From Chloroflexota bacterium (GTDB taxonomy: Bacteria; Chloroflexota; Dehalococcoidia; GIF9; AB-539-J10), in contig JAYENW010000001.1 in NCBI GenBank assembly GCA_034722275.1, positions 4,418-68,417 on the forward strand: a DNA stretch of 64,000 nt, given 5' to 3'. The first letter of the stretch is position 1. Every line of letters starts with the position of its first letter. The notes below the pieces were generated by a model. It was not told where the DNA came from. It saw only the letters and a list, made by a program, of their open reading frames with translations, and ran no database searches. Shown here piece by piece: positions 27,446-62,454 of the stretch. The position numbers and the translations under genes were made by a program.

Positions 27446-27448
27446 AGT

Positions 27449-27479
27449 AATAAAAAATCCTCTCGGCATAACCGAGAGG
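27449..27479 (-). terminator. GC-rich hairpin + U-tract (intrinsic terminator / RBS-sequestering attenuator candidate)
   Basis: Minus-strand RNA CCUCUCGG-UUAU-GCCGAGAGG followed by AUUUUUUAUU, ending 4 nt before the panG-like ATG; 3' arm contains the GAGAGG SD-like sequence; ~130 nt downstream of surE stop. Confidence 0.5.
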
Positions 27480-27611
27480 ATTTTAAACTGCACTCTTTCT
27501 CCCGTCTCGGTCGTTGCCGATCCAAGCGGAAACTTTATTTATCTTAAATTACACGCTCGCTGCCTTCTAGGTCAACCGCGTTTCTCATCTTAGCATAATT
27601 GGCGTAAATTG

Positions 27612-43045: not shown

Positions 43046-44770
43046 TCAAGACTTCTTCAGGGAGTTGCGCAATTTCTCAGTAGCTGCGGCATCCACTTTC
43101 ATGGTCTTGGGGTTGATGATGACACCATAGTCCTCTTTGGCTTTTTCAAGAGTCACATATTCACTGATAACATCGCTCTCCACGAATTCTGGCTCGCGCT
43201 CCAGAGGGTCTCCGTATCCTCCACCGCCGGCGGCATCAATGGTCACTACATCACCCGGTCCAAACTGTGTTAATCCATAGGGATCGCCAGGTTTATCATT
43301 CACCATGAAATGCCCTTTCATACTTGGTTTGCCGCCGAATAGACCTTCGGCGGGATAGCGATATCTTCCTGCCTGGATTCCCAGATTGACCGGCGGAGTG
43401 GGAGCATATTCATCGTCCGGTGCTCTGAATACGACTCGCCTTCCCAATCCTCCCTTCATCTTGCCTGCACCTCCTGAATCAGGAATGAGCTCTCTCCTTT
43501 CTACAATTAACGGAGTGTCACTTTCAAAGATTTCCACTGGTGTGTTAGCGCCATTGGCTGGGAAGATGACATCATAATAGCCATCATACTTGTGGCTGGC
43601 ACCCAAACCGCCACCTCTGATTATCACGCAATGCCAGGGGTTTCCATCATGACGCTTGCCATAAAAAACGTTCATAGCTGCTGGTGTACCACCGCTGCCC
43701 GCTATAACTTGGTTTGGCACCGCTGGAGACAATGCTCGATAAATCATCTCAGTCATGAAATGTCCTATTTGCATTCGAGCAGCAACAGCAGCGGGGAACT
43801 TGCAATTGACCACGGTCCCCTCAGGGGCCTTCAAGGTTATCGGTCGTGCCGCGCCATCATTGTTGGGCAACTCCGGGTCAAAGATACTCTTCATAGCCAT
43901 AAAGACATAGGCATAGGTGAAGTTGTAAACTACATTACCTCCCCAATCCACCTGAGGTGACGATCCAGCGAGGTCAACTATGATATCGCTTCCTTTCACC
44001 TCCACGGCCATTTTGATGTGTATATCTTCTTTTCCTTCGGGTTGTTCAATAATTCCCTCGTAAGGGTAAACGCCATCAGGTACTTTGGCAATGGAGTCCC
44101 TTATGCTTTTTTCCGTGCGCCCGATAATTTCATCGGCCAGGTCATCCAGGGTATCTAGTCCAGTATCTTCCAGCATCTCCGCTATCTTCTGTGCGCACAC
44201 ATGATTGGCTGCGATTTGCGAGCGAATATCACCGATGACCTCATCTGGCGTGCGAACGTTCCAGCGGATCATTTCAAAAACGGCTTCATTCGGGATGCCG
44301 CCGTCATAAAGTTTTACCAACGGAATAAACAAGCCATCTTCAAAGACATCATGATTGTCGGATGCTACTCGTCCACCTATATCTGAGTGGTGGAAGACAC
44401 ACGCTGTAAAAGCTACTACCTTATCCTTATAGAAAATTGGGCTCATTACACAGACGTCGTTGAGATGACCGGCAAGAAGCCAGGGATCGTTGGTGATGAA
44501 AATATCACCTGGCTTGTAACTTTCCAGGGGGAACTTACTAACGATATTCTTGATTCCTATTGCCATCGCCCCAGATTGCCCTGGTGTGGCAAGTGTTCCC
44601 TGGGCTAATTCTCGTCCTTTTTCATCGGTGAACATGCAGGTGTAATCGTGGGCATCACGCGTTAGGCTGGAAAATGCCGTCCGAGCTACAGACGCGTCAG
44701 ACTCATCCACGATGGAAATTAATCTGCGCCAGAGGATCTCCAGTGTTATAGGGTCAAATTTCTGCGTCAT
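43046..44770 (-). CDS. hyuB: Hydantoinase B/oxoprolinase family protein (HyuB/OplB-like)
   Basis: 574 aa, ...KPGDIFITNDPW... Hydantoinase_B family pattern; 2 nt after hyuA. Confidence 0.85.
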   Translation of the reverse strand: MTQKFDPITLEILWRRLISIVDESDASVARTAFSSLTRDAHDYTCMFTDEKGRELAQGTLATPGQSGAMAIGIKNIVSKFPLESYKPGDIFITNDPWLLAGHLNDVCVMSPIFYKDKVVAFTACVFHHSDIGGRVASDNHDVFEDGLFIPLVKLYDGGIPNEAVFEMIRWNVRTPDEVIGDIRSQIAANHVCAQKIAEMLEDTGLDTLDDLADEIIGRTEKSIRDSIAKVPDGVYPYEGIIEQPEGKEDIHIKMAVEVKGSDIIVDLAGSSPQVDWGGNVVYNFTYAYVFMAMKSIFDPELPNNDGAARPITLKAPEGTVVNCKFPAAVAARMQIGHFMTEMIYRALSPAVPNQVIAGSGGTPAAMNVFYGKRHDGNPWHCVIIRGGGLGASHKYDGYYDVIFPANGANTPVEIFESDTPLIVERRELIPDSGGAGKMKGGLGRRVVFRAPDDEYAPTPPVNLGIQAGRYRYPAEGLFGGKPSMKGHFMVNDKPGDPYGLTQFGPGDVVTIDAAGGGGYGDPLEREPEFVESDVISEYVTLEKAKEDYGVIINPKTMKVDAAATEKLRNSLKKS

Positions 44771-44772
44771 AT

Positions 44773-46866
44773 TTATACCTCCTTGAAGCTAATCCATACA
44801 AATCCATATTCGTCTACAGAAATAGAAGTATCTTCCCCGGCGATGACAGTTGATTCTCTTTCCTCGATAATAGCGGGGCCTTCGAATGTTGCTCCCGGGA
44901 AGAGGCTATAACGGTCGTACACAGTATAAGGGATATAGTCTTTGGCAAGTGGTGAATAAGCCGAACGCTGCCCTTTAATTGTATCGTTGAGAGAGGCTGC
45001 TTTCTTTGCGATTTTGGGTAATTGCAGGAGGCGACGCGGGAGGCTAACCCTTACTCTAAAGCTTACAAATTCCACCTGGGACTCGGGATAGGTTCTTCCG
45101 TACAGGTTCTTATATACCTCGTCAAAGCGATTGCGTACCTCTTCCCTTGTTATCTGGGAGAAGTCTTTTCTGGGAATGGAGACGCTGGTTTCCGAGCCTT
45201 GCCCTATGAAGCGCAGATCCAGCGACCTTTCGTATACAATATTTTCCTGGCCTCCAGTCCTTTCCAGAGTTCTGGCACCATCTGCTTCTATTTCCTGGAA
45301 TATTTTCTCGATTTCAGACAAGTCTGCATCTTCAAGACTGACCTTATGGCTTCTCACTAAATCGAAAGCTCTGGGAGCGGTGAAGAAACCCAGGGCTGAC
45401 CCCACACCAGCTATAGGTGGAACGAGAATCTTAGGGGCTCCCAGCTTCTTGGTTAATCCATAGGCGTGAACCGGGCCGGCTCCGCCAAAAGCGGCAATAG
45501 TGACGATCTTTGGGTTCCCTCCTTTTTCGGCGATGTGCGTCTTGGCTGCTGCAGCCATCGTCTCGTTGATGACGTCATGAATACCCCAGGCAGCCTGTGT
45601 GAGCGATACATCCAAGGGTTTGGCGATCTGTTCCTCGATGCCCTGCCTGGCTCCCTCCTTATCGAGCTTCATCTCTCCACCCAGGAAGTAGTTTTCATCC
45701 AGGTAGCCCAATATCAGGTCAGCATCAGTCACTCCAGGGCCTGTGCCGCCTCTGGCATAACAAATGGGGCCGGGGTCAGCTCCAGAGCTTTCCGGGCCTA
45801 CCTGCAGGGTTCCCATTTTGCTTATTTTGGCGATGCTGCCACCGCCAGCTCCAATCTCCATCAAGTCAACCACTGGCACCTGTATAGTGAGCCCACTTCC
45901 CTTCATAAACCTTTGCACACGGCCTACCTCAAAAGTTGGCACCACTCCAGCTACTCCTTTTTGAATCAGACAGGATTTGGCTGTGGTTCCTCCCATGTCA
46001 AAGCAGAAGATGTCTTTAATGTTGAACATTTTGCCATAGTACTGACCGGCAATAACTGCTGCTGTTGGCCCGGATTCAATAACTCTTACCGGGAACTCTT
46101 CAGCAGTCTCGGCTGAGGTAATTCCACCGCTAGCAAGCATAATAAAAAGCTTGCCTGTGGACCCCAGTGACTTTAGGCGATCATCTAGCTTGGCCAAATA
46201 TTTTCCCGTTAATGGTTTAACATAGGCATTGGTCGCTGTCGTGCTCGTTCTTTCGTATTCCCTTATCTGGGGCAGGACTTCATAAGAGATTGAAATGGAC
46301 ATGTCGGGTGCTTCTTTTAAGGTGATGTCCTTAAGCATAAGTTCATGAACAGGGTTCTCATAGGAATTTAAGAGGCAAACTGCTATCGAGTTAACCCCCA
46401 TATCAATTAATTTATGTACGATCTCTTTTGCTTCTTCTGGGTTCAATGGCTTCAGGACCGTGCCATCGCTGCGAAGTCTTTCATTTACTTCCAGGCGAAG
46501 TGGTCTCGGGATAAGTGGTACCGGGTACTCGGAAAAAATGTCATAAGGAGCATATCGTATTTCCCGTCCCAATTCCAGGATATCTCTAAATCCTTTGGTG
46601 GTAATTAAACCTGCTTTGGCCCCTTTCCTTTCGATGATGGCATTGATCACCAGAGTAGTGCCGTGTATCACTTCATCTAATTCCTCAACGAAGCCAGGGG
46701 TCTTCTTGGTTAATGCCACGACTCCTTCTTCCACGGCATCTGAGGGGTCTTTGGGAGTGGTTAAACACTTATGGATTTTTATTTCCCCGGTTTTATCATT
46801 TAGCAAGACGAAATCGGTGAAAGTGCCTCCAATGTCACACCCAAGCCGATAAATTTTATCAGACAT
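44773..46866 (-). CDS. hyuA: Hydantoinase A/oxoprolinase family protein (HyuA/OplA-like)
   Basis: 697 aa, N-terminal YRLGCDIGGTFTDFVL and internal DMGGTTAKS ASKHA motifs; AGGAGG RBS. Confidence 0.85.
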   Translation of the reverse strand: MSDKIYRLGCDIGGTFTDFVLLNDKTGEIKIHKCLTTPKDPSDAVEEGVVALTKKTPGFVEELDEVIHGTTLVINAIIERKGAKAGLITTKGFRDILELGREIRYAPYDIFSEYPVPLIPRPLRLEVNERLRSDGTVLKPLNPEEAKEIVHKLIDMGVNSIAVCLLNSYENPVHELMLKDITLKEAPDMSISISYEVLPQIREYERTSTTATNAYVKPLTGKYLAKLDDRLKSLGSTGKLFIMLASGGITSAETAEEFPVRVIESGPTAAVIAGQYYGKMFNIKDIFCFDMGGTTAKSCLIQKGVAGVVPTFEVGRVQRFMKGSGLTIQVPVVDLMEIGAGGGSIAKISKMGTLQVGPESSGADPGPICYARGGTGPGVTDADLILGYLDENYFLGGEMKLDKEGARQGIEEQIAKPLDVSLTQAAWGIHDVINETMAAAAKTHIAEKGGNPKIVTIAAFGGAGPVHAYGLTKKLGAPKILVPPIAGVGSALGFFTAPRAFDLVRSHKVSLEDADLSEIEKIFQEIEADGARTLERTGGQENIVYERSLDLRFIGQGSETSVSIPRKDFSQITREEVRNRFDEVYKNLYGRTYPESQVEFVSFRVRVSLPRRLLQLPKIAKKAASLNDTIKGQRSAYSPLAKDYIPYTVYDRYSLFPGATFEGPAIIEERESTVIAGEDTSISVDEYGFVWISFKEV

Positions 46867-46960: not shown

Positions 46961-48781
46961 TTAATCATAGATGGTCTTACATTCCAGTAACCTTACTGGT
47001 ATCCTCACCTCCCTTTCTATATCAAGATATACTCTTCCGGTCAGGTCTCTTGCCCAGTTTCCTAAAGTGAAAGGCGATGATGGTATTATTATTAAATCGG
47101 GCTCGGGTTGCCGCTTCAGGTAGTTTTTAATGTGGTCAATGAAGTCTTGAACTACAAGGAGATCACCCATGAATACATTGCCACCGAAATAATTATTCCG
47201 AGGAACCTCAATGTTTATTCTGAGTTCACTTGAGCTGAATAAATGGGATTCTCTGAGACACTGCTCAAACGTCGGCTTCATCAATTCAGAGGAAAGGAAA
47301 AGAATATTCCTGGCCTTCTCTTTGTCTATTATCTCCTTTAGCCTCTCAATGTAACTCAACCTTAGTCCGGTGTCCATGAAGATTACTCCGAGGTGCCGAT
47401 CAAATTCTCTGGAGAAGGGATAGTCGGAGTTATCTAAATCTACTGTCAGGTCAATTTCTTGGCTTTCCCTCTGGACGGTGAAACTAGCTGTTTTTTGCGT
47501 GCTCCTTTGTAACATATAAAGCATGTCTCTGGCTTGTGGTCTTGTCTTTATCTGGATGTTATTTATTCTACTGATAATGTCCCCCCTTTTAAAGCCGCTG
47601 CGAGCGACGGGAGAATTCCTGACTAATCCTATTATTCTCGGTAAGTTCTTGCACTTTTCATACAAATTTTCCTCATACATGCTGGGCATGGCTACAACAG
47701 GACATTCTATTTCTTCCCTCAATTGTCTTATGATGGAAATGCAGGCTTCCCAGACCTCGTCTAGGTCAAAAATTTCTTGAGATGAAAACCATTTGGAATA
47801 GCCGGGGAGATTAACCTCAATGAGATGTGCGCCACAATTATCGGCGTAGATTGCCGTTTTGTGGAAGTCTTGACACATCTCATTTATTGAATCCACAGGC
47901 CAGGGAACGATAACGATGGCATAGGGGATACCTTTGTCCTGTAATAATTTTGGGGCAGAAATAGCGATGTCAGGTTCGTTGTCCCTCATCAAATTTTTGC
48001 GACGCTCAGGAGATGAGCTATTTAAGGAAAGATAGATATATATCGGCTTGAGATTTACCAGCTCGCTTATTGTCTCGGGCGTTAGATTCTTGCCATTGGT
48101 GGTTATTCTTAGCGGGCTTGAAGTTCTTTCCCTCAAAGAGCAGAGAATTTCTCTGAAATGGGGATGAGCTAGGAAATCGTAACTTAGAGGTGGGTTGGGG
48201 AAAAGGCTCATACCTTTATCAGGAGAGAAGTAGCGGAGCCTTGTTTTAATTTCATCGCGTTCATCTTTGGCAGTCCTTTTTGGGTGTCTTAAACCGAGAG
48301 ACGACGGATTCCCCTTATTGTAACAAAAGGCGCAGTCACAATTACACCGAGATGCGGCATATTCCAAGATCTCACTGGGGTCGCAAGCATCAGGAATAAG
48401 CCAATCAGAAAGATTTTTTAATTTGAACCCGTCAACGTGGATGACCTCTCCTTTGCTTTCCAGCTCTACAACGGATAACAGGCCTTCAAGTTGTCTCTTG
48501 ATGAATTCTATTCTTGGTTCATATATAGAAGTGCTATCTGAGAGAGGTGATGAGCAACCTTCTCTAGGATATCTCAGGTCATGTACAGATATCCTGTCTG
48601 AGAGCAGTTTGAACCCATCAGGGTCTGTCTCTCTGTTGTTCTTTGTCAGGATGATGAGGTCTAACAGGTTTTGCAGTTGGTTTCTGACCAGTTCTAAGAG
48701 AGCATCATTGTACGGCTGCTCTTTTTTTTCTTGTAGTTCATAATGGAAGTCATGTTCTCTCATTGAACTAATAAAGCTCAT
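46961..48781 (-). CDS. Radical SAM protein with internal PDZ-like domain (unusual architecture)
   Basis: 606 aa; CNCDCAFC (CX3CX2C) at ~res 148-155; PDZ-like GLVRNSPVARSGFKRGDIISRINNIQI ~res 385-415; extra N- and C-terminal regions. Confidence 0.7.
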   Translation of the reverse strand: MSFISSMREHDFHYELQEKKEQPYNDALLELVRNQLQNLLDLIILTKNNRETDPDGFKLLSDRISVHDLRYPREGCSSPLSDSTSIYEPRIEFIKRQLEGLLSVVELESKGEVIHVDGFKLKNLSDWLIPDACDPSEILEYAASRCNCDCAFCYNKGNPSSLGLRHPKRTAKDERDEIKTRLRYFSPDKGMSLFPNPPLSYDFLAHPHFREILCSLRERTSSPLRITTNGKNLTPETISELVNLKPIYIYLSLNSSSPERRKNLMRDNEPDIAISAPKLLQDKGIPYAIVIVPWPVDSINEMCQDFHKTAIYADNCGAHLIEVNLPGYSKWFSSQEIFDLDEVWEACISIIRQLREEIECPVVAMPSMYEENLYEKCKNLPRIIGLVRNSPVARSGFKRGDIISRINNIQIKTRPQARDMLYMLQRSTQKTASFTVQRESQEIDLTVDLDNSDYPFSREFDRHLGVIFMDTGLRLSYIERLKEIIDKEKARNILFLSSELMKPTFEQCLRESHLFSSSELRINIEVPRNNYFGGNVFMGDLLVVQDFIDHIKNYLKRQPEPDLIIIPSSPFTLGNWARDLTGRVYLDIEREVRIPVRLLECKTIYD

Positions 48782-48793
48782 AAGAAGCTGCGT

Positions 48794-49795
48794 TTAGGTG
48801 GCTAGCAAAGCTTTGCATTTCTCGATCAAGGCAGGTATAGCTTGCTTGTAATCACCAACTAAACCGAAATCAGCTTCCTTGAAAATGTGGGCATCGGGGT
48901 CTTTATTTATGGCTACGATATGCTTTGAACCAGAGCATCCAGCCATATGTTGTACTGCCCCTGAAATGCCCACCGCAATATAGAGATCGGGCCCTACAAT
49001 GCGACCGGTTTGTCCAATTTCCAACGTCATCGGCATCCATCCTTCATCACAGGGGACTCTGGTTACTCCCACGGTGCCGCCAAGTACATGGGCCAATTCC
49101 TGTAGCATTTCAAATCCTTCAGTGCCACCGATGCCTCCACCACCGGATATAATAACTTTGGCATCCTCGAGCTTTATACCCGCGACCTCCTCTTTCACTG
49201 TTTCCACGAGTTTGCCTTTAATCGAGGAGTCTTTTACCTCTACAGTAAAGGACTCAATCTGACCTTTCCTGGAGGTGTCTGGCTCAGCAGGTGCCACTGA
49301 CCTTGGTCTCATGGTAATTATCTGAGGTTGACAGGATTCGGAGGCCCATACTGCCAGAGCATTGCCACCGTAAACTGGCCGTGTTTGCAGCAGCAGTTTG
49401 CTCTCTGAGTCTATAACCAAGTCAACGCAATCCATAGCTGCTGTAGTTTTCAACCTCGCTGCCAGCCTGGGTGCAATATCACGTCCTATGTCAGTCTGAC
49501 CTAAAAGAACGATGGATGGCAGCAATTGATCACAGGCGCCGGTAATCATAGCAACATAGAGATCAGGATGGGAATTGGCAAAGGTGGGGCCATCAATTAT
49601 ATATACTTTGTCAGCACCGAGGGCAATAACTTCCTTGGCTTCTTCTTCGATATTCTTTCCGATAAGTAAGGCCTTCAGTGGTTGTCCCAGGCTATTGCCT
49701 AGTTTCCTGCCCACACTTAATAATTCTCTGGTAATGGCGGCAATCTTTCCATCCACAACCTCCCCACAGATTAATATGCCATTGTATTCAGCCAT
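48794..49795 (-). CDS. etfA: Electron transfer flavoprotein alpha subunit
   Basis: 333 aa, C-terminal FAD domain ...PDLYIAVGISGAVQHMAG... Confidence 0.9.
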   Translation of the reverse strand: MAEYNGILICGEVVDGKIAAITRELLSVGRKLGNSLGQPLKALLIGKNIEEEAKEVIALGADKVYIIDGPTFANSHPDLYVAMITGACDQLLPSIVLLGQTDIGRDIAPRLAARLKTTAAMDCVDLVIDSESKLLLQTRPVYGGNALAVWASESCQPQIITMRPRSVAPAEPDTSRKGQIESFTVEVKDSSIKGKLVETVKEEVAGIKLEDAKVIISGGGGIGGTEGFEMLQELAHVLGGTVGVTRVPCDEGWMPMTLEIGQTGRIVGPDLYIAVGISGAVQHMAGCSGSKHIVAINKDPDAHIFKEADFGLVGDYKQAIPALIEKCKALLAT

Positions 49796-49817
49796 TAAAT
49801 TACCTCCTTAGCGTGAT

Positions 49818-50624
49818 CTATATTATCCTGGCTTCCCTCAGTTTTTCTGCCAGTTTAGCTGCTGCCTCAGCGGTGGTTTCTCCTTCAACAAGTTCACACT
49901 TGCGCTCTCTTGCCGGGATAAAAAGCTTCAACAGTTTTCTGCGCGCTGCTGCAGCTCCAACTTGAGCTGGATCGACATCGATATCCGCAGCTTTCCACAC
50001 AGGAATCTGCCTCCTGGCTGCAGATATGATTCCCAACCCAGATGGAAGTCGGGCCTGGCCAACTTCGTTACTGACTGTTACTACTGCTGGTGTTGGAACG
50101 ACAAATACTTGGTAGCCATCGAGTGTTACTCTCTTCACCTTCAATCCCTCTTCGACAAGCTCTGCATCTTCAGCCAATATCACTAAAGATGAACTTAGAT
50201 TCTCGGCGATTATTGAACCCACCAAGCCTTCATCCCAATCTGCTGCCTGTCGCCCACACAGGACAAGGTCATATTCTCCAATTTTTTGTATTGCTTTGGT
50301 CAGGATATAAGCTGCCCCAAAGCTATCCGATCCTTCGAATGCTGCGTCGTTTAGAACAAATCCATCGTCAGCTCCCATTGATATAGCGTGTTTAACAACC
50401 TTCTCAGCACCATCACCACCTGCCGTTAACACGGTTATCTTGCCTCCATTCCTCTCTTTTAATCTCAGCGCCAGTTCAACTGCCTGTGCATCATATGGAT
50501 TTATCACTGGTGGTATACCCTCTGGAGGTACAACTTGCTTTGCTTCGGAATTAACCTTGAACTTTGCTGGTGGAATATCTGGATCGAGTACTTGTTTAAC
50601 ACAAACTATGATATTCATTTGCAC
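49818..50624 (-). CDS. etfB: Electron transfer flavoprotein beta subunit
   Basis: 268 aa, MNIIVCVKQVLD EtfB N-terminus. Confidence 0.9.
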   Translation of the reverse strand: MQMNIIVCVKQVLDPDIPPAKFKVNSEAKQVVPPEGIPPVINPYDAQAVELALRLKERNGGKITVLTAGGDGAEKVVKHAISMGADDGFVLNDAAFEGSDSFGAAYILTKAIQKIGEYDLVLCGRQAADWDEGLVGSIIAENLSSSLVILAEDAELVEEGLKVKRVTLDGYQVFVVPTPAVVTVSNEVGQARLPSGLGIISAARRQIPVWKAADIDVDPAQVGAAAARRKLLKLFIPARERKCELVEGETTAEAAAKLAEKLREARII

Positions 50625-50630
50625 TCCTTT

Positions 50631-50909
50631 CTATCCGTACTGATAGCATATGCCAAATCCAGGTCTTGGTAGAGTCCAGTCAATGGCTCCTTTATCACAT
50701 GCAATGTGACAACTGCCGCATTCCAGGCAGCCTTCATAAGAGAAGGTAATGTGTCCTTCACTCAGTTTGTAGCAGTTGGCAGGACAAACATATAGACATA
50801 CATGTTCTTGACAGGATTTGCAAATGTCCTCGTTTATCTTGATATGGACATCTTTGTCTATATCGAACTTATTAACTGATAATTTATCTTCGATGCTGAT
50901 AGTACTCAT
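50631..50909 (-). CDS. fixX: Ferredoxin-like protein FixX
   Basis: 92 aa, CKSCQEHVCLYVCP and CLECGSCHIAC cysteine motifs. Confidence 0.85.
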   Translation of the reverse strand: MSTISIEDKLSVNKFDIDKDVHIKINEDICKSCQEHVCLYVCPANCYKLSEGHITFSYEGCLECGSCHIACDKGAIDWTLPRPGFGICYQYG

Positions 50910-52195
50910 ATAGCCCCTTTACCCCGTATTAAGTCTGGAACTATTTGCCACAGCGAAGCCTTGTCTTCTAGCGACCTCTTAAACAAATTCCATGTTGTCC
51001 TCCTCGGCTGACCATCGCTGATGAAGATTCTCTGTGCCAAGTCGCAGGCCAAATCGGGATACAGATTGTAAATGTGAGGGCTTTCCAAAAAATGTGGTGC
51101 CTTCTTAAAAGTTTTCAGGTCTTTGAGCACGAAGTTATCTTCAAGTAATCGTTTATAATAAGAAAGAGATTCCTCTGAAAAATCGTTCTCTTGTTTGGCT
51201 CTGATTATGGTCTGGGCTGCGGCTATGCCAGAGGCAATGGCGAAATTAGCTCCCTCTAGTATTAATCCAGTTCCTAGAACCATGGCGGCGGCATCGCCGG
51301 CGACGAGAAAACCATCACTGTATAACTTGGGCAGCATATTGATTCCGGAAACTGGGATAAGGTGTCCGGAGTATTCTACGAGCTTACCTCCTTTGATTAC
51401 CTTGGCTACTTCCGGGTGGGTCTTAAATTTTTCAAGTAAGTCATTGGCTTGAATTTTTCTTTCAGCAAGGGCGTTTAATTGAGCCACGACTCCTATCGAT
51501 AGGCTATCTTTATTGGTATAGATAAAGCCACCGCCCGGTAATCCTTCTGTACAGGAACCAACGAACGCCCATGACATACCCTCATCACCAGTTAAATTGA
51601 AACGCTGTTCAAGTATTTCCCGGGGAAACTCTATAATCTCTTTCACTCCTTGCTTTATATCTTCTGGCGAGAGTTCTTCCCTGAGCCCGGCTTTTTGAGC
51701 CAAAACGGAGTTCACGCCATCGCAAGCAACAACTACACTAGCTGGTAGCTCATCGCCACCTGCCCTTATGCCTGTCACTCGGTTCTCGTTCCAGAGGAGG
51801 TCATCAGCTCCTAACCCCGGTGCCACGATAGCACCTGCTTCTTGAACTTTATCGGCAAGCCAGCGGTCAAATTTGGAACGCAGAATAATGAAGCCATTGT
51901 GTGAGGGCTGGCTGAATTTAGGAGTCGTGAATTCTAGAGAGAGACAATCCTCATCGGAGAGAAATGAAATCCTCTGGCGAGTAACGTATCTTTCAAAAGG
52001 CGCTTCTTCACAAAAATTTGGGAATAGCTTGAGCAATTCTGGGCCATAAAAGGCGCCACCCCACATGTTTTTTGCACCGGCAAATTTTCCCCTCTCCACC
52101 ACCAATGTTTGCAACCCGGCCTGCGCTAGCTTATAGCCACAGGCACAACCGGCTGGCCCTGCCCCCACTATTATGGCATCGAATCCTTGTTCCAT
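50906..52195 (-). CDS. fixC: FixC-type FAD-dependent oxidoreductase (ETF-quinone oxidoreductase-like)
   Basis: FDAIIVGAGPAGCACGYKLA FAD motif, 429 aa, 4-nt overlap with fixX. Confidence 0.85.
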   Translation of the reverse strand: MEQGFDAIIVGAGPAGCACGYKLAQAGLQTLVVERGKFAGAKNMWGGAFYGPELLKLFPNFCEEAPFERYVTRQRISFLSDEDCLSLEFTTPKFSQPSHNGFIILRSKFDRWLADKVQEAGAIVAPGLGADDLLWNENRVTGIRAGGDELPASVVVACDGVNSVLAQKAGLREELSPEDIKQGVKEIIEFPREILEQRFNLTGDEGMSWAFVGSCTEGLPGGGFIYTNKDSLSIGVVAQLNALAERKIQANDLLEKFKTHPEVAKVIKGGKLVEYSGHLIPVSGINMLPKLYSDGFLVAGDAAAMVLGTGLILEGANFAIASGIAAAQTIIRAKQENDFSEESLSYYKRLLEDNFVLKDLKTFKKAPHFLESPHIYNLYPDLACDLAQRIFISDGQPRRTTWNLFKRSLEDKASLWQIVPDLIRGKGAI

Positions 52196-52206
52196 GGCGA
52201 CATATA

Positions 52207-53364
52207 TTATGAGGTGAAGGCTGGCATCTCAAGAAGTCGCTGCCCGACGGTTAATTTGTGTATGTTGCCTGTACCGCCAAGTATGGTGGCGGTGATGATA
52301 TCCTGATAGTGATGGCCTACAGGGTAGTCATCGAAGGTGCCGAATGAGCCATGAATCTTGACCGCCTCTGCTGTTATCCAGAGCGCGCTTTCGGTGGCAA
52401 AATACTTGGCATAAGACATCTCTTTGATATGGCGCACTCCTCGGCTCTTAAGGTCGGCAACATAATAAGTAAGCCACCTAGCTGCCTCGATCTTTGTTGC
52501 CATTTCAGCTATTGTACCCTGTATTAACTGGTGACCACCTAAAGGCTTGCCGAATTGCACGCGTTCCTTGGCATATTTTATAGAGGCATCGAGGCAACTC
52601 TGAGCAACACCGACAGCACCTGCAGCTAAGAAAAGACGGGCGGTATCAATGCCTCGCAGGGCATCTCTGAGGCCACGCCCTGCCTCTGAAAGCTGATTTT
52701 CCAGTGGTATCTTACAGTCGGTAAATCTCATCATACCCTCGCTACCGCCCCGCCAGCTTATTCTCCCTATCTGGGCTGTGCTGGAATATCCTGGCGTGCC
52801 TTTCTCAACGAGAAAAGAAGCTAGTCCTCTGACCCCCTTGCTTTTATCTGTTTGTGCTACAACTATGGCTACATCAGCCTCGGCACCATTGGTAATGAAA
52901 ATTTTATTACCATTGAGAACCCAGTAGTTTCCATCCCGCACCGCCATGGTTTCAATCAGGGAGGAATCGCTGCCAGCATTGGACTCAACTACAGCCCCAG
53001 ATAGAATTTTCTCGCCCTTACACACAGGGGGTAGCCACTTCCTCTTCTGTTCCTCAGTGCCAGCATCGAGGAGATTGGTTCCCGGCTGTATCGGGCCGCT
53101 GCTTGCTGCCTGTGTTACGGCAAGACTGGCCCAGCAAAGCTGTTCCCAGATAATGCAGGTGGTGATGTAATCAAGCCCCAATCCGCCGTATTCCTGGGGC
53201 AAATGCGGTGCCAGCAGTCCGACATCGCCCATCTTCTTAATAAGCCCTATGTCGAACTTCTCCTGCCGCTCATTTTCCTTGAGATTTGGTAGAATCTCCT
53301 GCTCGGCGAACTTGCGCGCCATATCACGGAACATTATCTGCTCTTCACTGAATTCAAAATTCAT
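52207..53364 (-). CDS. Acyl-CoA dehydrogenase family protein (atypical catalytic-base positions)
   Basis: 385 aa ACAD fold throughout; C-terminal ILGGTGNIHKLTVGQRLL where canonical YEGT Glu is Gly. Confidence 0.8.
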   Translation of the reverse strand: MNFEFSEEQIMFRDMARKFAEQEILPNLKENERQEKFDIGLIKKMGDVGLLAPHLPQEYGGLGLDYITTCIIWEQLCWASLAVTQAASSGPIQPGTNLLDAGTEEQKRKWLPPVCKGEKILSGAVVESNAGSDSSLIETMAVRDGNYWVLNGNKIFITNGAEADVAIVVAQTDKSKGVRGLASFLVEKGTPGYSSTAQIGRISWRGGSEGMMRFTDCKIPLENQLSEAGRGLRDALRGIDTARLFLAAGAVGVAQSCLDASIKYAKERVQFGKPLGGHQLIQGTIAEMATKIEAARWLTYYVADLKSRGVRHIKEMSYAKYFATESALWITAEAVKIHGSFGTFDDYPVGHHYQDIITATILGGTGNIHKLTVGQRLLEMPAFTS

Positions 53365-53402: not shown

Positions 53403-53804
53403 TTATTCTTCTTTTTGCACCAGCTCAACGAGAATGCCGTTGGTACCTTTCGGGTGAAGAAAGACGCTCATGCCCTCTGCCCCCGGTTTCGGAGTTCCGA
53501 TGGACTGCAGCCCTTTGGATTTCAGCCATTCGAGCTCTGCGTTTATATCATCTACCTCGAGGCAAACATGGTGAATTCCCTCACCGCGCTTTTCCAGAAA
53601 CTTCGCCATTACACTTGTGTCGGTGAGTGGTTGTATCAATTCCAGTGTGGCGCGGCCAACTTTTACCAGGCTTACTTTGAGATCTCTTTCATTACCTCCA
53701 ATTATGGGTGCAGCCGGCTCAAGCTGCAAAACTGAGCGATAGAAATCCATAGCTTTTTCTAGGTCCTTCACTGCAAGGCCAAGATGACTAATCTGTTTTA
53801 TCAT
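53403..53804 (-). CDS. mce: Methylmalonyl-CoA epimerase (VOC/glyoxalase fold)
   Basis: 133 aa, ISHLGLAVKDLEKAMDFY...GIHHVCLEVDDI... Confidence 0.8.
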   Translation of the reverse strand: MIKQISHLGLAVKDLEKAMDFYRSVLQLEPAAPIIGGNERDLKVSLVKVGRATLELIQPLTDTSVMAKFLEKRGEGIHHVCLEVDDINAELEWLKSKGLQSIGTPKPGAEGMSVFLHPKGTNGILVELVQKEE

Positions 53805-53853: not shown

Positions 53854-55602
53854 TTACAACTCAGGCTGCTGGTAGAGACCAAATACCTCTGTGAAGACAT
53901 TGCTTATCTCGCCTATGGTAGCGTAGGTCTCAACGGCCTCCACTAAGGCAGGAATGGTATTGGCACTCTCATCTCGGGCTACCTCCTTTAGCTGCTTGAG
54001 ACTCGCCTTCACTGCCTCGTTATTTCTTTCTTTCTTTATCTTTTCCAGATTAGCAAGTTGTTCTTCCTCAGCTTTTGCTCTCTTCGCGGCGTCGTAAGGA
54101 TTTGGCACCATTCTATTAATACTGATTTCCAGTTCATTCTCGCCGGTGAATTTGTTAACACCTACAACAGTTTTTTTGCCACTCTCTATATCCTTCTGGT
54201 GTTCGTAGGCAGATTTAGCCAGCTCTCTCATGACCCAACCTGACTCAACGGCGGCTGGCATACCACCCATCTTGTCAATCTGGTCAATTATTTCGAAAGC
54301 CTCCTTCTCATATTTGTCGGTCAGGTATTCTACATAATAGGAACCAGCCAGGGGGTCAGATACATCGCATAACCTGGATTCGAACATTATGATTCGAGCT
54401 GCATCCTGTTCCAACTGGATGGCTTCCATGCTGTGCCCCAAGCCCAAAGCTTCATCGAAGGGCGGATAGCAAGTTGGAACATACCCGGATAATGCCTCGG
54501 CAACACCACCTATCACGCTGCGCGTCAGGTTGTTCAGTGGTCTCTGCTTGGTGCAATTATCGTGCCCCATGGTGCAGCCGCCAACATCACGGTAAATCAG
54601 ACCTCTGGGGTCCTTGGCTCCAAACCTCTCCTTCAGAATTCTAGCCCACATGCGGCGGGCTGCTCTGAGCACCGCTACTTCTTTCAACATTTCCATGGTG
54701 CCACTCAAATCGTTGAAGCTCATCAATGGTGCAACTGTATCAATATCCAGTCCTGCATCTAACCCCAACTGGCCATAGGCAATGGCAGCTGACAGAGAAA
54801 AGCCCAACACCTGAGCTCGCGTCGCTCCTGCTTCACGGAAGTGGTGGCCGTTAATGCTTACTGGGTGCATCCTTGGCATCTCTTTAGCCGCCCATATGAT
54901 GGTATCCCTGGTTAACCTCATCTGAGGCTTAACCGGCCATATTGGCGTTCCTCTGGAATCATATTCCTTCAAGTTATCGTTTTGAGGTGTACATCTTAGT
55001 TTGTTGATGGGGATGCCCCTCTTCTTGGCTAGAGCGATATATAGCGCCACAAGAGTATTGGCTTCGGGATTTATCGTCCACGCGGAGTTAATCTTGTCCA
55101 GATCGGAGCCATCCTTGAAGGGTGCATAGAGTATCTCCCAGTCTCTTAAAGTGTCTATTGCTACTCCAGTCTTTCCCACTTCACCTTTGACTTCAGGGGC
55201 ATCAGAGTCATAGCCACATTGAGTTGGCAAATCAAGAGCTAGGTTCATACCTGGGACTCGTCCATAAGACATCATTGCTTGATAATATTCTGCGGTATCT
55301 GCAGCGGTGCCATATCCTGAATATCGCCCTGCTCTTACCAAACCGCCGCCAGCTAATGAATGGCCACCACCTACTGCTGGTGCGGCACCGGGTGCCTGGC
55401 AGGCATACTTACCAGCAGTGTAAGGATACTCTCCAGGAAAGCCAACGTCCTTTAAGAAATCAAATTTCTTTACATCTGGAGGCGCATAGAACTCAGTGGT
55501 GCTTTCACTTACTCCAAACCGTTTCAGAGTCTGTTTAAGTGGCCCTTCCTCCCATTCTTTCCTTTTCCTTTCAATCTCTTTTAACTCTTCTTCGCTGAAC
55601 AT
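53854..55602 (-). CDS. Methylmalonyl-CoA mutase family catalytic (large) subunit, no fused B12 domain
   Basis: 582 aa; LALDLPTQCGYDSD, TPQNDNLKEY; Gly/Ala-rich insertion CQAPGAAPAVGGGHSLAGGGLVRAG. Confidence 0.85.
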   Translation of the reverse strand: MFSEEELKEIERKRKEWEEGPLKQTLKRFGVSESTTEFYAPPDVKKFDFLKDVGFPGEYPYTAGKYACQAPGAAPAVGGGHSLAGGGLVRAGRYSGYGTAADTAEYYQAMMSYGRVPGMNLALDLPTQCGYDSDAPEVKGEVGKTGVAIDTLRDWEILYAPFKDGSDLDKINSAWTINPEANTLVALYIALAKKRGIPINKLRCTPQNDNLKEYDSRGTPIWPVKPQMRLTRDTIIWAAKEMPRMHPVSINGHHFREAGATRAQVLGFSLSAAIAYGQLGLDAGLDIDTVAPLMSFNDLSGTMEMLKEVAVLRAARRMWARILKERFGAKDPRGLIYRDVGGCTMGHDNCTKQRPLNNLTRSVIGGVAEALSGYVPTCYPPFDEALGLGHSMEAIQLEQDAARIIMFESRLCDVSDPLAGSYYVEYLTDKYEKEAFEIIDQIDKMGGMPAAVESGWVMRELAKSAYEHQKDIESGKKTVVGVNKFTGENELEISINRMVPNPYDAAKRAKAEEEQLANLEKIKKERNNEAVKASLKQLKEVARDESANTIPALVEAVETYATIGEISNVFTEVFGLYQQPEL

Positions 55603-59233: not shown

Positions 59234-59629
59234 CTAGGACTTGACATTCTGCTGAATATAATCTGCTACTTCTTTAATCGTTGACCCTTGGTCAAAGACC
59301 TCGTGTATTCCTTTCTCTTTCAAAAAAGGGACATCTTCATCCGGGATATTGCCGCCAGCCATGAATAAGACCTTATTCAGCCCCTTTTTCTTGGCCAACT
59401 CAACTACTCTGGGAAGGAGTTCCTTATGCGCTCCCGAGAGGATACTCATGCCTATCGCATCCGCCTTTTCCTTGATGGCCCGCTCCACTATTTCTTCCGG
59501 GGTTTTCCGCAGCCCGGTGTAGACGACATCCATCCCTTCATCTCTCAAACCCAGGGTCAGAACCCTCGCTCCACGCTCATGACCATCCAGTCCTGGCTTG
59601 GCAATGAGAACTTTTATCTTTTCTTTCAT
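59234..59629 (-). CDS. B12-binding domain protein (methylmalonyl-CoA mutase small/C-terminal-domain subunit)
   Basis: 131 aa, KVLIAKPGLDGHERGARV DxHxxG cobalamin-binding motif. Confidence 0.8.
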   Translation of the reverse strand: MKEKIKVLIAKPGLDGHERGARVLTLGLRDEGMDVVYTGLRKTPEEIVERAIKEKADAIGMSILSGAHKELLPRVVELAKKKGLNKVLFMAGGNIPDEDVPFLKEKGIHEVFDQGSTIKEVADYIQQNVKS

Positions 59630-59647: not shown

Positions 59648-61954
59648 CTAGCCTGATTTTTCCTTGAGAGCTTTAAGGATTTTCTCTGGTGTTGCCGGCA
59701 GGTCCTTTATCCACACTCCGATGGCATCGTGGATGGCGTTGCCTATAGCTGGAGCGATGCCAACAAGGCCTGGCTCGCCAACCCCTTTAGCTCCGAAGGG
59801 GCCTTTAGGATCAGGCTTGTCAATAATTATTATTTTGGTATTCTCGGGCATATCCATGGTTCCCGGCATCTTGTAGGTAGTAAAGTTGTCGCTTTCCACA
59901 GCACCGGTATTCTTGTTAATGACATAATCCTCAGTTAAACCATAGCCTATGCCTTGTTGTACCCCTCCTTCGCATTGTCCTTCCACAGTCATTGGATTTA
60001 TCGCTTTACCACAGTCCACAGCCGTTATGAAGTTTAATACCTTCACCTCACCAGTCTCGGTATCCACTTCTACCTCAGCAAAATAAGCTGCTGTTGGTAT
60101 CGAATTATAATGAGAGGCCCAGGAGGATTTTCCTGATATGTTCAGAGATTCTCCCTTTAAATTCCAGATAGATTGAAAACATACGTCGGCCACAGAAGTC
60201 TTCTTTTCCGGGTTCGATTTCACATAAATTTGTCTGTCCTTGATATCTAAATCATCGGGTGATTCTGACAGCATCTTGCCTGCTCGCTCCAGAAGCTGCC
60301 TTTTAGCCTGTCGTGCTGCCTCCAGAACCGCGTTCCCGGTGACATAGGTTGACCGACTGGCATGGGAGCCAAGGTCGAACATGGTCTTATCTGTTTCACC
60401 GGTAACTATATAGATATCTTCAGCAGGAATTCCGAGTTCCTCAGCAGCAATTTGTGAGAGCGTGCCCCAGATATGAGTGCCAGGAGAACCTGGGTTTACC
60501 GTCAAGTCAGCCGTGCCATCCTCGTTAAACTTTATGAAGGCATTGGAGTGCTCTATGAGCAATGGCCAAGCACCACTGCAATGTGTCATAGTGGCCATGC
60601 CTACACCTCGTTTTAGTGTTCCTTTTCCACCTTTGTTCTTGCCCAGCTTTTCGTTCCAGCCTATAGCCTTGGCGCCCTCTCCAATACAGTCATCTATGTA
60701 GCTGCTCTCGATAGGAAGCCCCATATTAGCCATTTCACCAGTGTGCTTGGTATTCTTCAACCTGATTTCCACAGGGTCCATTCCTAGTTTTTCTGCTGCC
60801 ATATCCACCACCTCTTCCACACCCCACATTATCGCTGGATTTCCGAAACCTCGACCAGCGCCTGCCACTGTGGTATTGGTGTAGATAACATCACATGACC
60901 CATTCATATTGGGGCAATGGTAGTGTCCCAAAGCCCAGATAAGGGTGATGCCACCGGCCAACTGGGCACGGCTTAAGTAGCCTCCAGCCCAAGTTGTAAC
61001 ATCTACCGTCATGGCATTGAGTGTGCCATCTTCCTTAAAGCCCATCTTTACGGTGTAATAATGCGGCGTTCTGGTATCAATGGTGGTGAAGTCCTCTTCC
61101 TTAGAGTACACTAGCTTCACCGGCTTATGCACTTTCATCGCCAGCGCAATGCAAATAGGCTCGTTGTGACAGCTTAGTCGGCAGCCAAAGCTGCCGCCAA
61201 CAAAGGGATTAACCACATTTATCTTGCCCACGGGTATGTTGAACATCTTCCCCAGTTCCCTCCTGAAGGGATGGGCTAGCTGACAGGGACTGTAACAGGT
61301 CACCTTCCCGCTACTGTCAACGCTGGTGACACATGACTGCGTTTCCATCTGGCAAGCCACCTGTTTTGAGGCGAAAAATTTCTCCTCTACTACGACATCA
61401 GATTCGGTAAAGCCCTTTTCCACATTCCCTTTAACTAGAAAAGGAGGAGGAGTAAGATGCACTGCGATGTTATTCTTAGCGTAATCATGCATCAGAGGAG
61501 CACCGGGTTTCACGGCTTCGAAAGGGTCGAGCACGAAAGGCAATTGCTCATACTCCACTTCAATCAGGTCCAATGCTTCTTCAGCAGTTTTCTCATCCAC
61601 GGCTGCTACAGCAGCTATGGGATCCCCAACGTAGCGCGCTTTGTCAGCGAGAATATACTCATCAGCATGCTGCAGAGCCCCGCTGGGAGCCATAGGCATG
61701 TCACGAAAAGAACGGGCCCAGAGTATTTTAGGCGTGTCTTCTACTGTAATCACAGTAGCTACTCCTGAGAGTTTTTCGGCTTTGGATTTGTCTATTTTCT
61801 TGATTTTGGCATGAGGATAAGGGCTATGAAGCACTTTCCCCCAGAGCATTCCTGGTAATCTCACGTCGGGCACATATCTTGCCTCTCCCGTAGCTTTAAG
61901 CACCACATCTTTCTGGGTAATTCGTTTCCCTACACAAGTGAGTTCCTGGCTCAT
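59648..61954 (-). CDS. Xanthine dehydrogenase-family molybdopterin-binding large subunit (CoxL/HcrA-like; not a bona fide CO dehydrogenase)
   Basis: 768 aa; GGSFGCR Mo-cofactor loop, C-terminal QCEGGVQQGIGYGLTED; CODH active-site loop AYRCSFR/AYRGAGR absent. Confidence 0.85.
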   Translation of the reverse strand: MSQELTCVGKRITQKDVVLKATGEARYVPDVRLPGMLWGKVLHSPYPHAKIKKIDKSKAEKLSGVATVITVEDTPKILWARSFRDMPMAPSGALQHADEYILADKARYVGDPIAAVAAVDEKTAEEALDLIEVEYEQLPFVLDPFEAVKPGAPLMHDYAKNNIAVHLTPPPFLVKGNVEKGFTESDVVVEEKFFASKQVACQMETQSCVTSVDSSGKVTCYSPCQLAHPFRRELGKMFNIPVGKINVVNPFVGGSFGCRLSCHNEPICIALAMKVHKPVKLVYSKEEDFTTIDTRTPHYYTVKMGFKEDGTLNAMTVDVTTWAGGYLSRAQLAGGITLIWALGHYHCPNMNGSCDVIYTNTTVAGAGRGFGNPAIMWGVEEVVDMAAEKLGMDPVEIRLKNTKHTGEMANMGLPIESSYIDDCIGEGAKAIGWNEKLGKNKGGKGTLKRGVGMATMTHCSGAWPLLIEHSNAFIKFNEDGTADLTVNPGSPGTHIWGTLSQIAAEELGIPAEDIYIVTGETDKTMFDLGSHASRSTYVTGNAVLEAARQAKRQLLERAGKMLSESPDDLDIKDRQIYVKSNPEKKTSVADVCFQSIWNLKGESLNISGKSSWASHYNSIPTAAYFAEVEVDTETGEVKVLNFITAVDCGKAINPMTVEGQCEGGVQQGIGYGLTEDYVINKNTGAVESDNFTTYKMPGTMDMPENTKIIIIDKPDPKGPFGAKGVGEPGLVGIAPAIGNAIHDAIGVWIKDLPATPEKILKALKEKSG

Positions 61955-61955
61955 G

Positions 61956-62438
61956 TCATTTACCTCCTTCGTTCATTTCCTTGGCTGCGGCCAACACAGC
62001 GTCAATTATCTTGACATAGCCCGTACATCTACACAGATTACCGGCCAGGTATGCTTTGACCTCTTCCCTGGTGGGATTTGGGTTTTCATCTAGCAAGGCT
62101 TTGGCTGTAAGAATCATTCCTGGTGTGCAAAAGCCGCATTGTATAGCACCGTGTTCTATAAAAGCTTTTTGGATGGGGTGTAACTCGCCACCCTTGGCTA
62201 AACCCTCTATGGTGAGAATGTTCTTGTCTTTGGCGGTTATAGCTAGGGTACAGCAAGAGAGCATAGGTTTGCCCTCAATTAAGACGGTACAAGCCCCGCA
62301 TTCACCAGCTCCACAGCTGAATTTTGTCCCGGTAAGGTCCAGTTGCTCTCTCAAAACCTCATTCAACGTCATCTGTGGTTCTACGGCTACTTCGTATGGT
62401 GTACCATTTATGGTGAAATTTATGATTTCTTTTTTCAT
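61956..62438 (-). CDS. (2Fe-2S)-binding small subunit of XDH-family hydroxylase
   Basis: 160 aa, CGAGECGACTV and CGFCTPG/LCRCTGY motifs. Confidence 0.9.
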   Translation of the reverse strand: MKKEIINFTINGTPYEVAVEPQMTLNEVLREQLDLTGTKFSCGAGECGACTVLIEGKPMLSCCTLAITAKDKNILTIEGLAKGGELHPIQKAFIEHGAIQCGFCTPGMILTAKALLDENPNPTREEVKAYLAGNLCRCTGYVKIIDAVLAAAKEMNEGGK

Positions 62439-62454
62439 GATGCTACCTCCTTAC

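Follow-up and report, generated by a model that had tools for sequence, protein, structure and literature searches.

The locus described here raises the question of which process is served by a radical S-adenosylmethionine (SAM) enzyme whose gene lies between etfA and hyuA, on the minus strand of a 64,000-nucleotide stretch of a Chloroflexota genome (contig JAYENW010000001.1, hereafter the window). A first-pass annotation, made from the letters of the window, had described a 606-residue radical SAM protein in which a PDZ domain is embedded, had given no strand for it, and had placed it with the electron-transfer flavoprotein (ETF) and hydantoinase-type (HyuAB) modules on either side. The description of the protein is borne out by its translation and by the Pfam Radical_SAM and PDZ_2 models, both of which score above their cut-offs. 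The gene, however, should not be annotated as belonging to ETF or hydantoinase chemistry. Across related loci it is firmly coupled to genes of B12-dependent acyl-CoA mutases and not to those of ETF or HyuAB, and its product is very probably a class II (Mmp10/DUF512-type) cobalamin-dependent radical SAM enzyme.

The protein is composed of N-terminal repeats, a radical SAM core, a PDZ domain and a C-terminal DUF512-like domain. This domain order is new, and the protein is a divergent architectural variant of its class that belongs to no curated family. In the searchable literature we found no description of the architecture or of an association with mutases. Residue numbers refer to the 606-residue form, secondary-structure positions from AlphaFold2 to a 600-residue form, and conservation counts to 67 non-identical family members from several phyla. 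The AlphaFold2 model was calculated from 84 homologues and has a mean predicted local distance difference test score (pLDDT) of 84 and a predicted template modelling score (pTM) of 0.83. The gene is divided as follows.

46961..48781, minus strand: whole gene of the radical SAM/PDZ/DUF512-like protein, 606 residues, ATG start (list of open reading frames (ORFs) and translation)
48578..48703, minus strand: N-terminal repeat 1, residues ~27-68, a helix followed by a small β-meander (AlphaFold2 helix 21-34 and strands 37-62; repeat hidden Markov model (HMM))
48401..48517, minus strand: N-terminal repeat 2, residues ~89-127, the same helix/β-meander unit (AlphaFold2 helix 83-96 and strands 99-115)
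47684..48376, minus strand: radical SAM core, residues ~136-366 (Pfam PF04055, alternating β/α in AlphaFold2, Foldseek)
48323..48346, minus strand: CNCDCAFC, predicted [4Fe-4S]-binding CX3CX2C motif, residues 146-153, followed by Y154 (translation)
47435..47626, minus strand: PDZ domain of HtrA/RseP type, residues 386-449, between the radical SAM core and the C-terminal domain (Pfam PDZ_2)
46982..47359, minus strand: DUF512-like domain with putative cobalamin binding, residues ~475-600 (Pfam, AlphaFold2, Foldseek, profile alignment)
47144..47191, minus strand: YFGGNVFMGDLLVVQD motif with L541 (translation; HMM alignment to 9cg1 and 9cg2)

The C-terminal region, about 170 residues that the first-pass annotation had been unable to place in a family, is DUF512-like. 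In the AlphaFold2 model it forms a four-stranded, Rossmann-like α/β/α fold, with a leading helix at 469-482, strands at 486-490, 515-519, 557-562 and 590-594, and helices between them. The top three Foldseek matches in the PDB are pfDUF512 from Pyrococcus furiosus (9CG2, E 8.9e-11), csDUF512 from Clostridium sporogenes (9CG1, E 1.9e-10) and Mmp10, the arginine C-methyltransferase that acts on methyl-coenzyme M reductase (MCR) (7QBS, E 8.5e-7); among class II cobalamin-dependent radical SAM enzymes, these three are the ones with known structures (PMC11659888, PMC12931638). The profile of the C-terminal region alone matches 9CG1 (E 1.3e-3), and Pfam DUF512 (PF04459) matches 36 of the 37 aligned homologues at E<=0.01, with a best value of 1.6e-6. 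The solved DUF512 domains bind cobalamin, and cobalamin binding together with the formation of methylcobalamin from SAM was shown for four DUF512 proteins (PMC11659888).

A near-invariant stretch of the domain, FFGGN..MGDLLVVQD, is aligned to NNFFGKTITVAGLITAND in csDUF512 and to NEFFGGNIGTAGLLTGRD in pfDUF512. Residues G533, G534, N535, G539, D540, L541 and D546 are each conserved in at least 65 of the 67 family members; L541 is present in 65 and falls in a gap in the other two. By sequence alignment, L541 corresponds to L366 of csDUF512 and L286 of pfDUF512, and the leucine at that position sits under the cobalt, on the lower axial side, in both structures (PMC11659888). In the solved enzymes, a threonine makes a hydrogen bond with N3 of the dimethylbenzimidazole that has been displaced (T323 in csDUF512, T252 in pfDUF512 and T291 in Mmp10; PMC11659888). 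Candidates for the base-contacting serine or threonine of the window protein are S/T497 and the invariant S498, located where the first strand of the domain ends; the alignment to 9cg1 starts two residues past T323.

The radical SAM core is recognized by Pfam Radical_SAM (PF04055) over residues 145-302, with an E value of 6.6e-14 and 52.9 bits against a cut-off of 29.5 bits. Its Foldseek matches are the radical SAM domains of SuiB, SkfB, NifB and viperin-like enzymes. The CX3CX2C motif that had been reported within CNCDCAFC is present and conserved in the homologues, but it spans residues 146-153 and not 148-155. C146 and C150 occur in all 67 members and C153 in 66, while C148 occurs in 47 and is replaced by leucine, isoleucine or alanine in 19 relatives. 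This pattern of conservation identifies C146-X3-C150-X2-C153 as the cluster-ligating motif, which is predicted to bind a [4Fe-4S] cluster. The residue right after the third cysteine is tyrosine (Y154) in 48 of the 67 members and cysteine in 19, so an aromatic side chain at this position is not universal in the family. The equivalent residues, F95 in csDUF512 and Y47 in pfDUF512, are positioned between the cluster and the cobalamin (PMC11659888). Outside the CX3CX2C motif, C601 is the sole broadly conserved cysteine.

The profile searches did not place the protein in a curated radical SAM family. No SPASM/twitch domain was matched at threshold by Pfam or NCBIfam, and no NCBIfam model reaches its cut-off on the window protein. 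The first-pass annotation had suggested a profile check for a standard family of the BioB or LipA type without a PDZ domain; such matches are sub-threshold only, and the PDZ domain scores above its cut-off. Identities as a SPASM, viperin, MoaA-like or Mmp10 equivalog protein were rejected on the same grounds (sub-threshold matches in Pfam and NCBIfam). For TIGR03278, the Mmp10 equivalog model, the window protein scores 19 bits against a cut-off of 350 bits, and it is therefore not an Mmp10 orthologue.

The PDZ domain is detected by Pfam PDZ_2 (PF13180) with an E value of 1.8e-8 and 35 bits, above the cut-off of 27 bits. The family profile matches the PDZ domain of RseP (E 8.9e-13), and the Foldseek matches of the domain are the PDZ domains of RseP, DegQ and MucP. 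It contains a hydrophobic-Gly-hydrophobic carboxylate-binding loop, IIGLV, and G385 is present in 66 of the 67 members. All 37 aligned homologues have both the radical SAM and the PDZ domain and align over their full length.

The departure from the order PDZ, radical SAM, DUF512 had been noticed before and is confirmed here, as the PDZ domain (residues 386-449) follows the Radical_SAM match (residues 145-302). In csDUF512, the canonical PDZ-radical SAM-DUF512 protein (COG1625), a truncated β3-α4 barrel is completed by the PDZ domain, which is N-terminal (PMC11659888). The two proteins share the three domain types and, for the window protein, the aromatic residue after the third cysteine. In the window protein, however, the PDZ domain stands between a longer radical SAM core and the C-terminal domain, about 130 extra residues precede the core, and the genomic context is different. 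The DDD motif that csDUF512 carries on the cluster loop, ~18 residues past the third cysteine, is also absent: after C153 the window sequence reads YNKGNPSSLGLRHPKRTAKDERDE, with conserved E174 and E177 at a similar spacing.

The best structural match is pfDUF512 (target TM score 0.65), in which the radical SAM core is followed by a C-terminal, cobalamin-binding DUF512 domain. The family profile matches its core (E 2.7e-6), and both proteins contain FFGGNI..G.LL...D with the lower-axial leucine. However, pfDUF512 is 358 residues long, lacks the N-terminal repeats and is only ~15% identical to the window protein. Mmp10 resembles the window protein in belonging to class II and in having a C-terminal four-stranded cobalamin domain with the lower-axial leucine; it lacks the N-terminal repeats, and MCR cannot be the target here. 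Neither pfDUF512 nor Mmp10 has a PDZ domain (PMC11659888).

The N-terminal region of about 140 residues had been left unplaced, and indeed no family match was found for its repeat unit in Pfam or the PDB, where the likeness to Sm-like folds is very weak and non-significant. It is not one domain of 140 residues, as had been supposed, but is modelled as a tandem duplication of a ~45-residue unit made of a helix and a β-meander. The block of repeat 1 has a pLDDT of about 84-86. Across the family, the repeat HMM finds one or two copies per protein; repeat 2 is found in almost all members, with P89, R90, F119 and W127 conserved in at least 97%. In eight Dehalococcoidia loci (loci are given by L numbers), repeat 1 is a separate ORF of 81-84 residues directly upstream of a 531-residue radical SAM protein with one repeat, so the two arrangements represent a split or fused gene pair. 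The stand-alone repeat ORFs are located as follows.

L003: 9729-9980
L004: 583-834
L008: 9989-10243
L010: 9998-10243
L011: 1483-1728
L013: 5423-5674
L014: 9989-10240
L024: 9989-10243

A small N-terminal module, here fused or encoded as an ORF of ~80 residues directly upstream, is a feature shared with radical SAM enzymes of the PqqE/PqqD type. A stand-alone repeat ORF, of 71 residues, is also present in L073, the locus of a distant relative. Homologues of 700-747 residues carry an additional 100-250 residues at the N-terminus, in which neither Pfam domains nor more than weak repeat matches were found; the search of these extensions with Pfam and the repeat HMM revealed no informative domain fusion.

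We compared the surroundings of the gene in 74 related loci, taken from one genome per species, and in four loci from assemblies, after ORF calling and clustering of the encoded proteins. The following neighbours were counted as present within 10 kb of the radical SAM gene in 75 loci.

Mutase large subunit: 47 of 75 loci
Enoyl-CoA hydratase: 46 of 75 loci
MmgE/PrpD: 36 of 75 loci
Family III CoA-transferase: 33 of 75 loci
B12-binding mutase small subunit: 32 of 75 loci
MeaB: 17 of 75 loci, directly downstream of the radical SAM gene in three
EtfA: 8 of 75 loci
HyuA: 5 of 75 loci

A gene for either mutase subunit occurs within 10 kb in 50 of the 75 loci, and in 32 of the 37 that have at least 5 kb of sequence on both sides. 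In 26 loci, a mutase gene lies no more than 200 bp from the radical SAM gene, which is often placed between the two subunit genes. Directly upstream is the large subunit gene in 16 loci and the enoyl-CoA hydratase gene in 20; directly downstream is the gene of the B12-binding subunit in 13 loci and that of the large subunit in eight. The order GntR regulator, mutase large subunit, radical SAM protein, B12-binding small subunit, enoyl-CoA hydratase, PrpD, CoA-transferase, MeaB recurs in Thermodesulfobacteriota. The association with the mutase is found again in Chloroflexota, Thermodesulfobacteriota, Bacillota, Nitrospinota and Actinobacteria, where the gene orders are rearranged. Around the radical SAM-mutase pair, the remaining genes vary by lineage and comprise an ETF/acyl-CoA dehydrogenase/Hyu set, a Na+-decarboxylase set, or PrpD and CoA-transferase. 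We consider it probable that the enzyme is functionally linked to the mutase.

The proposal of the first-pass annotation that the enzyme works with ETF/FixABCX and HyuAB on their substrate, or matures one of these proteins, is very unlikely in the light of these counts. The gaps that had been given are correct, 12 nucleotides after etfA and 94 before hyuA, the genes share a strand, and the same arrangement is found in L005, L006 and L007. It is confined to these closest relatives, among which the radical SAM protein of L006 is 62% identical to the window protein. EtfA and HyuA are found near the radical SAM gene in only the few loci listed above, all of them from closest relatives, and a promoter-like consensus site precedes hyuA in the window. 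Maturation of an enzyme or cofactor, which had been named among the candidate reactions, remains live.

Two further sets of neighbours were observed. In one Chloroflexota lineage (L003, L008, L010, L013, L014, L024, L025 and L068), genes for a carboxyltransferase, a biotin carrier, OAD-beta and enoyl-CoA hydratase precede the radical SAM gene; together they make up the set for a sodium-pumping acyl-CoA decarboxylase. In L023, L035 and L071, genes for a CbbQ/NorQ-type AAA+ ATPase (286 residues), a VWA protein (565 residues) and a zinc-ribbon protein (112 residues) are located directly upstream of the radical SAM gene.

The mutase of the window is encoded by two genes on the same strand as the radical SAM gene.

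53854..55602, minus strand: acyl-CoA mutase large subunit (MM_CoA_mutase, Pfam 2.5e-129), 5.1 kb upstream of the radical SAM gene, in the radical SAM-linked clade
59234..59629, minus strand: B12-binding mutase small subunit, 131 residues, with LDGHERG corresponding to DxHxxG (TIGR00640, 147.5 bits against 57)

The large subunit scores 454 bits with TIGR00641, and 381 bits with the methylmalonyl-CoA mutase equivalog model, for which 876 bits are needed. The large subunits linked to radical SAM genes form one clade of 577-586 residues and 52-100% identity. They lack the canonical motif RG.YP.MYR and reach about 380-390 bits with the same equivalog model. Their closest solved structure is HcmA (E 1e-102). 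The clade keeps a tyrosine and an arginine that match Y89 and R207 of methylmalonyl-CoA mutase, and the substrate of these mutases is therefore likely to carry a free carboxylate.

The coupling was also examined in reverse, by scanning metagenomes with a mutase profile, which gave 80 loci, eight with members of the clade and 72 with other mutases. Among the loci with at least 2 kb of sequence on both sides, a radical SAM gene is directly adjacent in two of four clade loci and in none of 39 others (Fisher p=0.0066, with small numbers).

In the window, the genes of the small and the large subunit are 3.6 kb apart, with sucC, sucD and a gene for an scpC-type CoA-transferase between them; in most other loci they are adjacent. 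The window large subunit differs from the clade in two active-site stretches, NGHHFREAGAT in place of GGYHIREAGAT and DSRGTPIWPV in place of IARGTYIFPP, and related variants are carried by L006 and L002. The window mutase may act on another substrate than the other members of the clade do. In loci of the Peptococcaceae type, the radical SAM gene is found near a mutase of another clade, such as the one at 5401-7038 in L071, which belongs to an HcmA-like clade. The genes ahead of the radical SAM gene in such loci are those of the AAA+, VWA and zinc-ribbon proteins named above.

We tentatively hypothesize, at somewhat less than even chances, that the enzyme is a class II cobalamin-dependent radical SAM protein that serves the mutase, probably by a protein modification similar to that catalyzed by Mmp10, which is our working model for its action. 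By analogy with Mmp10 and the DUF512 proteins, the C-terminal domain would bind cobalamin in the base-off form. The reduced cluster would cleave SAM to a 5'-deoxyadenosyl radical, which would abstract a hydrogen atom from the target, and the cobalamin, methylated by a second SAM, would give its methyl group to the target radical. SAM was shown to serve both purposes in Mmp10, and the same was proposed for the DUF512 proteins (PMC11659888). From the anatomy of the protein and its genomic context, the PDZ domain and the N-terminal repeats would recognize a protein, most likely the co-encoded mutase, for which the radical SAM enzyme would be a maturation or modification factor, as Mmp10 is for MCR. 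The reaction would not be a step of ETF or hydantoinase chemistry.

A protein target is favoured because the enzyme has a PDZ domain and a separable N-terminal module, and because Mmp10, whose substrate is the only one known in the class, methylates a protein (PMC11659888); reviews describe the reactions of DUF512 enzymes as unknown (PMC13331322). The mutase is the likeliest such target because it stays a neighbour while the other enzymes change between lineages. The chaperone-type AAA+/VWA genes that accompany the radical SAM gene in three loci likewise favour a protein target. If this is true, the enzyme would be the first one known to modify a B12 mutase.

Several observations weigh against this interpretation. 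The window protein itself matches Pfam DUF512 over residues 478-571 with an E value of 5.7e-5 and 22.9 bits, below the cut-off of 25 bits, and the match covers profile positions 83-173 of 202. Two members of the mutase clade, L081 and L083, have no radical SAM gene within 10 kb, and in the window the radical SAM gene is 5 kb from the gene of the large subunit and 10 kb from that of the small subunit. Among the conserved neighbours, the large subunit alone ends in a hydrophobic residue in every case (32 of 32), as would suit a PDZ ligand; such an end is just as common in mutases without a link to the radical SAM gene (65 of 71), and because it is general to split mutases it adds nothing as evidence for a PDZ ligand. 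To our knowledge, no post-translational modification of any B12 mutase has been described. Enoyl-CoA hydratase is as frequent a neighbour as the mutase, which leaves room for a role in small-molecule chemistry. Finally, relatives of 30-33% identity with the same order of radical SAM, PDZ and DUF512 domains are found in housekeeping contexts without a mutase nearby.

As for the sub-threshold DUF512 match, we read the window protein as a divergent DUF512 relative, to judge by its profile scores, that Pfam as curated would miss. A recorded DUF512 match is carried by only some of the homologues. Because of this, and because the window protein is below the cut-off, much of the family would have escaped the DUF512 study, whose network of about 6000 sequences was based on Pfam.

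The frequency of enoyl-CoA hydratase brings in the main rival to a protein modification, namely that the enzyme methylates, epimerises or rearranges a small molecule, a (di)carboxylyl-CoA or free acid shared with the neighbouring CoA-transferase, mutase, hydratase and PrpD-like enzyme. We regard this as rather unlikely. The operons look catabolic, with a family III CoA-transferase, enoyl-CoA hydratase, MmgE/PrpD, TRAP or Tct transporters and a GntR regulator, and the CoA-transferase is most like succinyl-CoA:mesaconate and succinate-glutarate enzymes. The hydratase gene is not only equally frequent but often stands directly upstream, in the 20 loci mentioned above, and cobalamin-dependent radical SAM enzymes that do not methylate exist, for example OxsB (PMC11659888). 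On the other hand, it is unusual for an enzyme that acts on small molecules to carry a PDZ domain and a separable N-terminal module. Which enzymes surround the radical SAM-mutase pair differs by lineage, and the window has no enoyl-CoA hydratase, PrpD or family III transferase near the gene. The stoichiometric use of SAM for methylation would also be costly in catabolism. Moreover, the succinate-to-propionate set of the E. coli type (mutase, MeaB, a crotonase-type decarboxylase and a CoA-transferase) is not known to need such an enzyme.

The distant relatives in housekeeping contexts were found in L073 (9746-11443), L076 and L072 (4440-6182), from Sumerlaeota, Eisenbacteria and an unclassified bacterium, with tmk-holB-PSP1 or NAD synthase genes alongside. 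They are what would be expected if the enzyme had a housekeeping role, for example in the modification of RNA or of a general protein, which the canonical DUF512 proteins may share, and if the synteny with the mutase were an inherited order without functional meaning. The faint resemblance of the N-terminal unit to Sm-like folds, although non-significant, points the same way. We give this explanation little credence, since the mutase association recurs in the groups named above with rearranged gene orders, which is hard to explain by inheritance alone, and since the radical SAM gene was found in none of the 39 loci of other mutases with at least 2 kb on both sides.

A third alternative to modification of the mutase concerns its coenzyme. 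The enzyme might synthesize or repair adenosylcobalamin (AdoCbl) for the mutase in a SAM-dependent manner and so replace an ATP-dependent adenosyltransferase. Base-off cob(II)alamin and the 5'-deoxyadenosyl radical would recombine, or cob(I)alamin would attack C5' of SAM, and the coenzyme would be handed to the mutase together with MeaB, with docking through the PDZ domain and the N-terminal repeats. The proposal is chemically plausible but improbable. MeaB and the adenosyltransferase, chaperones of methylmalonyl-CoA mutase, are likewise accessory genes encoded with B12 mutases; they have no sequence or fold relationship to the radical SAM enzyme, and cofactor handling by the latter is conjecture. 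The position of the gene between the mutase subunit genes and beside MeaB is consistent with such a role. So is the hydrophobic leucine at the DUF512-like domain's lower-axial position, as known adenosyltransferases use the same hydrophobic strategy on the lower axial side.

Purified DUF512 proteins held 38-44% AdoCbl, and 5'-deoxyadenosine is located above the cobalt in 9CG2 (PMC11659888). This AdoCbl may, however, stem from the E. coli host, and every DUF512 protein that was tested formed methylcobalamin from SAM (PMC11659888). The PduO-type adenosyltransferase motif GDxGxT is absent from all radical SAM loci, as a substitute enzyme would lead one to expect, but within the loci compared it is present in only one of 72 control mutase loci. 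Its absence is uninformative because it is also missing from the other 71. We know of no precedent for a SAM-dependent reaction that forms AdoCbl. If cofactor handling were true, it would change the picture of B12 trafficking by adding a second, ATP-independent route to coenzyme B12, and an AdoCbl synthase or repair enzyme would be the first assigned DUF512-type function outside methanogens.

Modification of the mutase remains the reading that we prefer. Mmp10 is the only class II cobalamin-dependent radical SAM enzyme whose substrate is known. The family described here is the first branch found with a strong recurrent partner, a clade of split B12 mutases in strictly anaerobic Chloroflexota, Thermodesulfobacteriota and Bacillota, and this partner offers concrete candidate substrates: the mutase itself, its cofactor and its acyl-CoA substrates.

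In the window, the radical SAM gene is near the end of an array on the minus strand. The array starts, in the 5' to 3' direction, with a CoxMSL-like molybdenum (Mo) hydroxylase, the B12-binding mutase small subunit, sucC, sucD, the scpC-type CoA-transferase and the mutase large subunit. It continues with methylmalonyl-CoA epimerase, acyl-CoA dehydrogenase, fixC, fixX, etfB, etfA, the radical SAM gene, hyuA and hyuB. The genes on the two sides of the radical SAM gene, identified with Pfam and, from the epimerase to EtfA, also with NCBIfam, are listed below.

53403-53804, minus strand: methylmalonyl-CoA epimerase
52207-53364, minus strand: acyl-CoA dehydrogenase
50906-52195, minus strand: FixC
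50631-50909, minus strand: FixX
49818-50624, minus strand: EtfB
48794-49795, minus strand: EtfA, with the 12-nucleotide gap from its stop codon to the radical SAM gene
44773-46866, minus strand: HyuA, hydantoinase/oxoprolinase family (Pfam 5.6e-81), starting 94 nucleotides past the radical SAM gene
43046-44770, minus strand: HyuB, hydantoinase/oxoprolinase family (Pfam 1.2e-146)

The acyl-CoA dehydrogenase is most like the models of acryloyl-CoA reductase and glutaryl-CoA dehydrogenase, with scores below their cut-offs. It stands beside a complete module of the FixABCX type (48794-53364, minus strand), a set of the kind that is used for electron bifurcation. The head of the array is formed by three genes of a Mo hydroxylase of the xanthine dehydrogenase/CO dehydrogenase type (59648-63327, minus strand), which encode the FAD, 2Fe-2S and Mo subunits. 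The 94-nucleotide gap between the radical SAM gene and hyuA contains a promoter-like sequence, TTGACA-18-TAAACT (46937-46908, minus strand), which matches the consensus at 10 of 12 positions; it is a consensus match only, and the region has no more sites of this kind than expected from shuffling. No terminator-like site was found in the same gap.

The window protein is identical to NCBI MEA3441931.1, which is annotated only as 'radical SAM protein [Chloroflexota bacterium]', and a form of the same sequence with 600 residues is also on record. More than 120 homologues have 48-96% identity, with E values down to 0, and 368 cluster representatives were found at E<1e-30. Translation from Met7 (MREHDF), at position 48763, would give a protein of 600 residues. 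Because most homologues are 600 residues long and begin at this point, 48763 may be the true start codon. Between 48763 and 48781 (minus strand) the start is ambiguous, as no obvious Shine-Dalgarno sequence precedes either ATG.

Among RNA elements, the window contains no cobalamin riboswitch or other relevant RNA family. Outside the array, at 27498-27580 on the minus strand, it contains a match to the Rfam pan motif (RF01749) with 44.9 bits against a gathering score of 36.2 bits, located just upstream of the ORF at 26588-27493.

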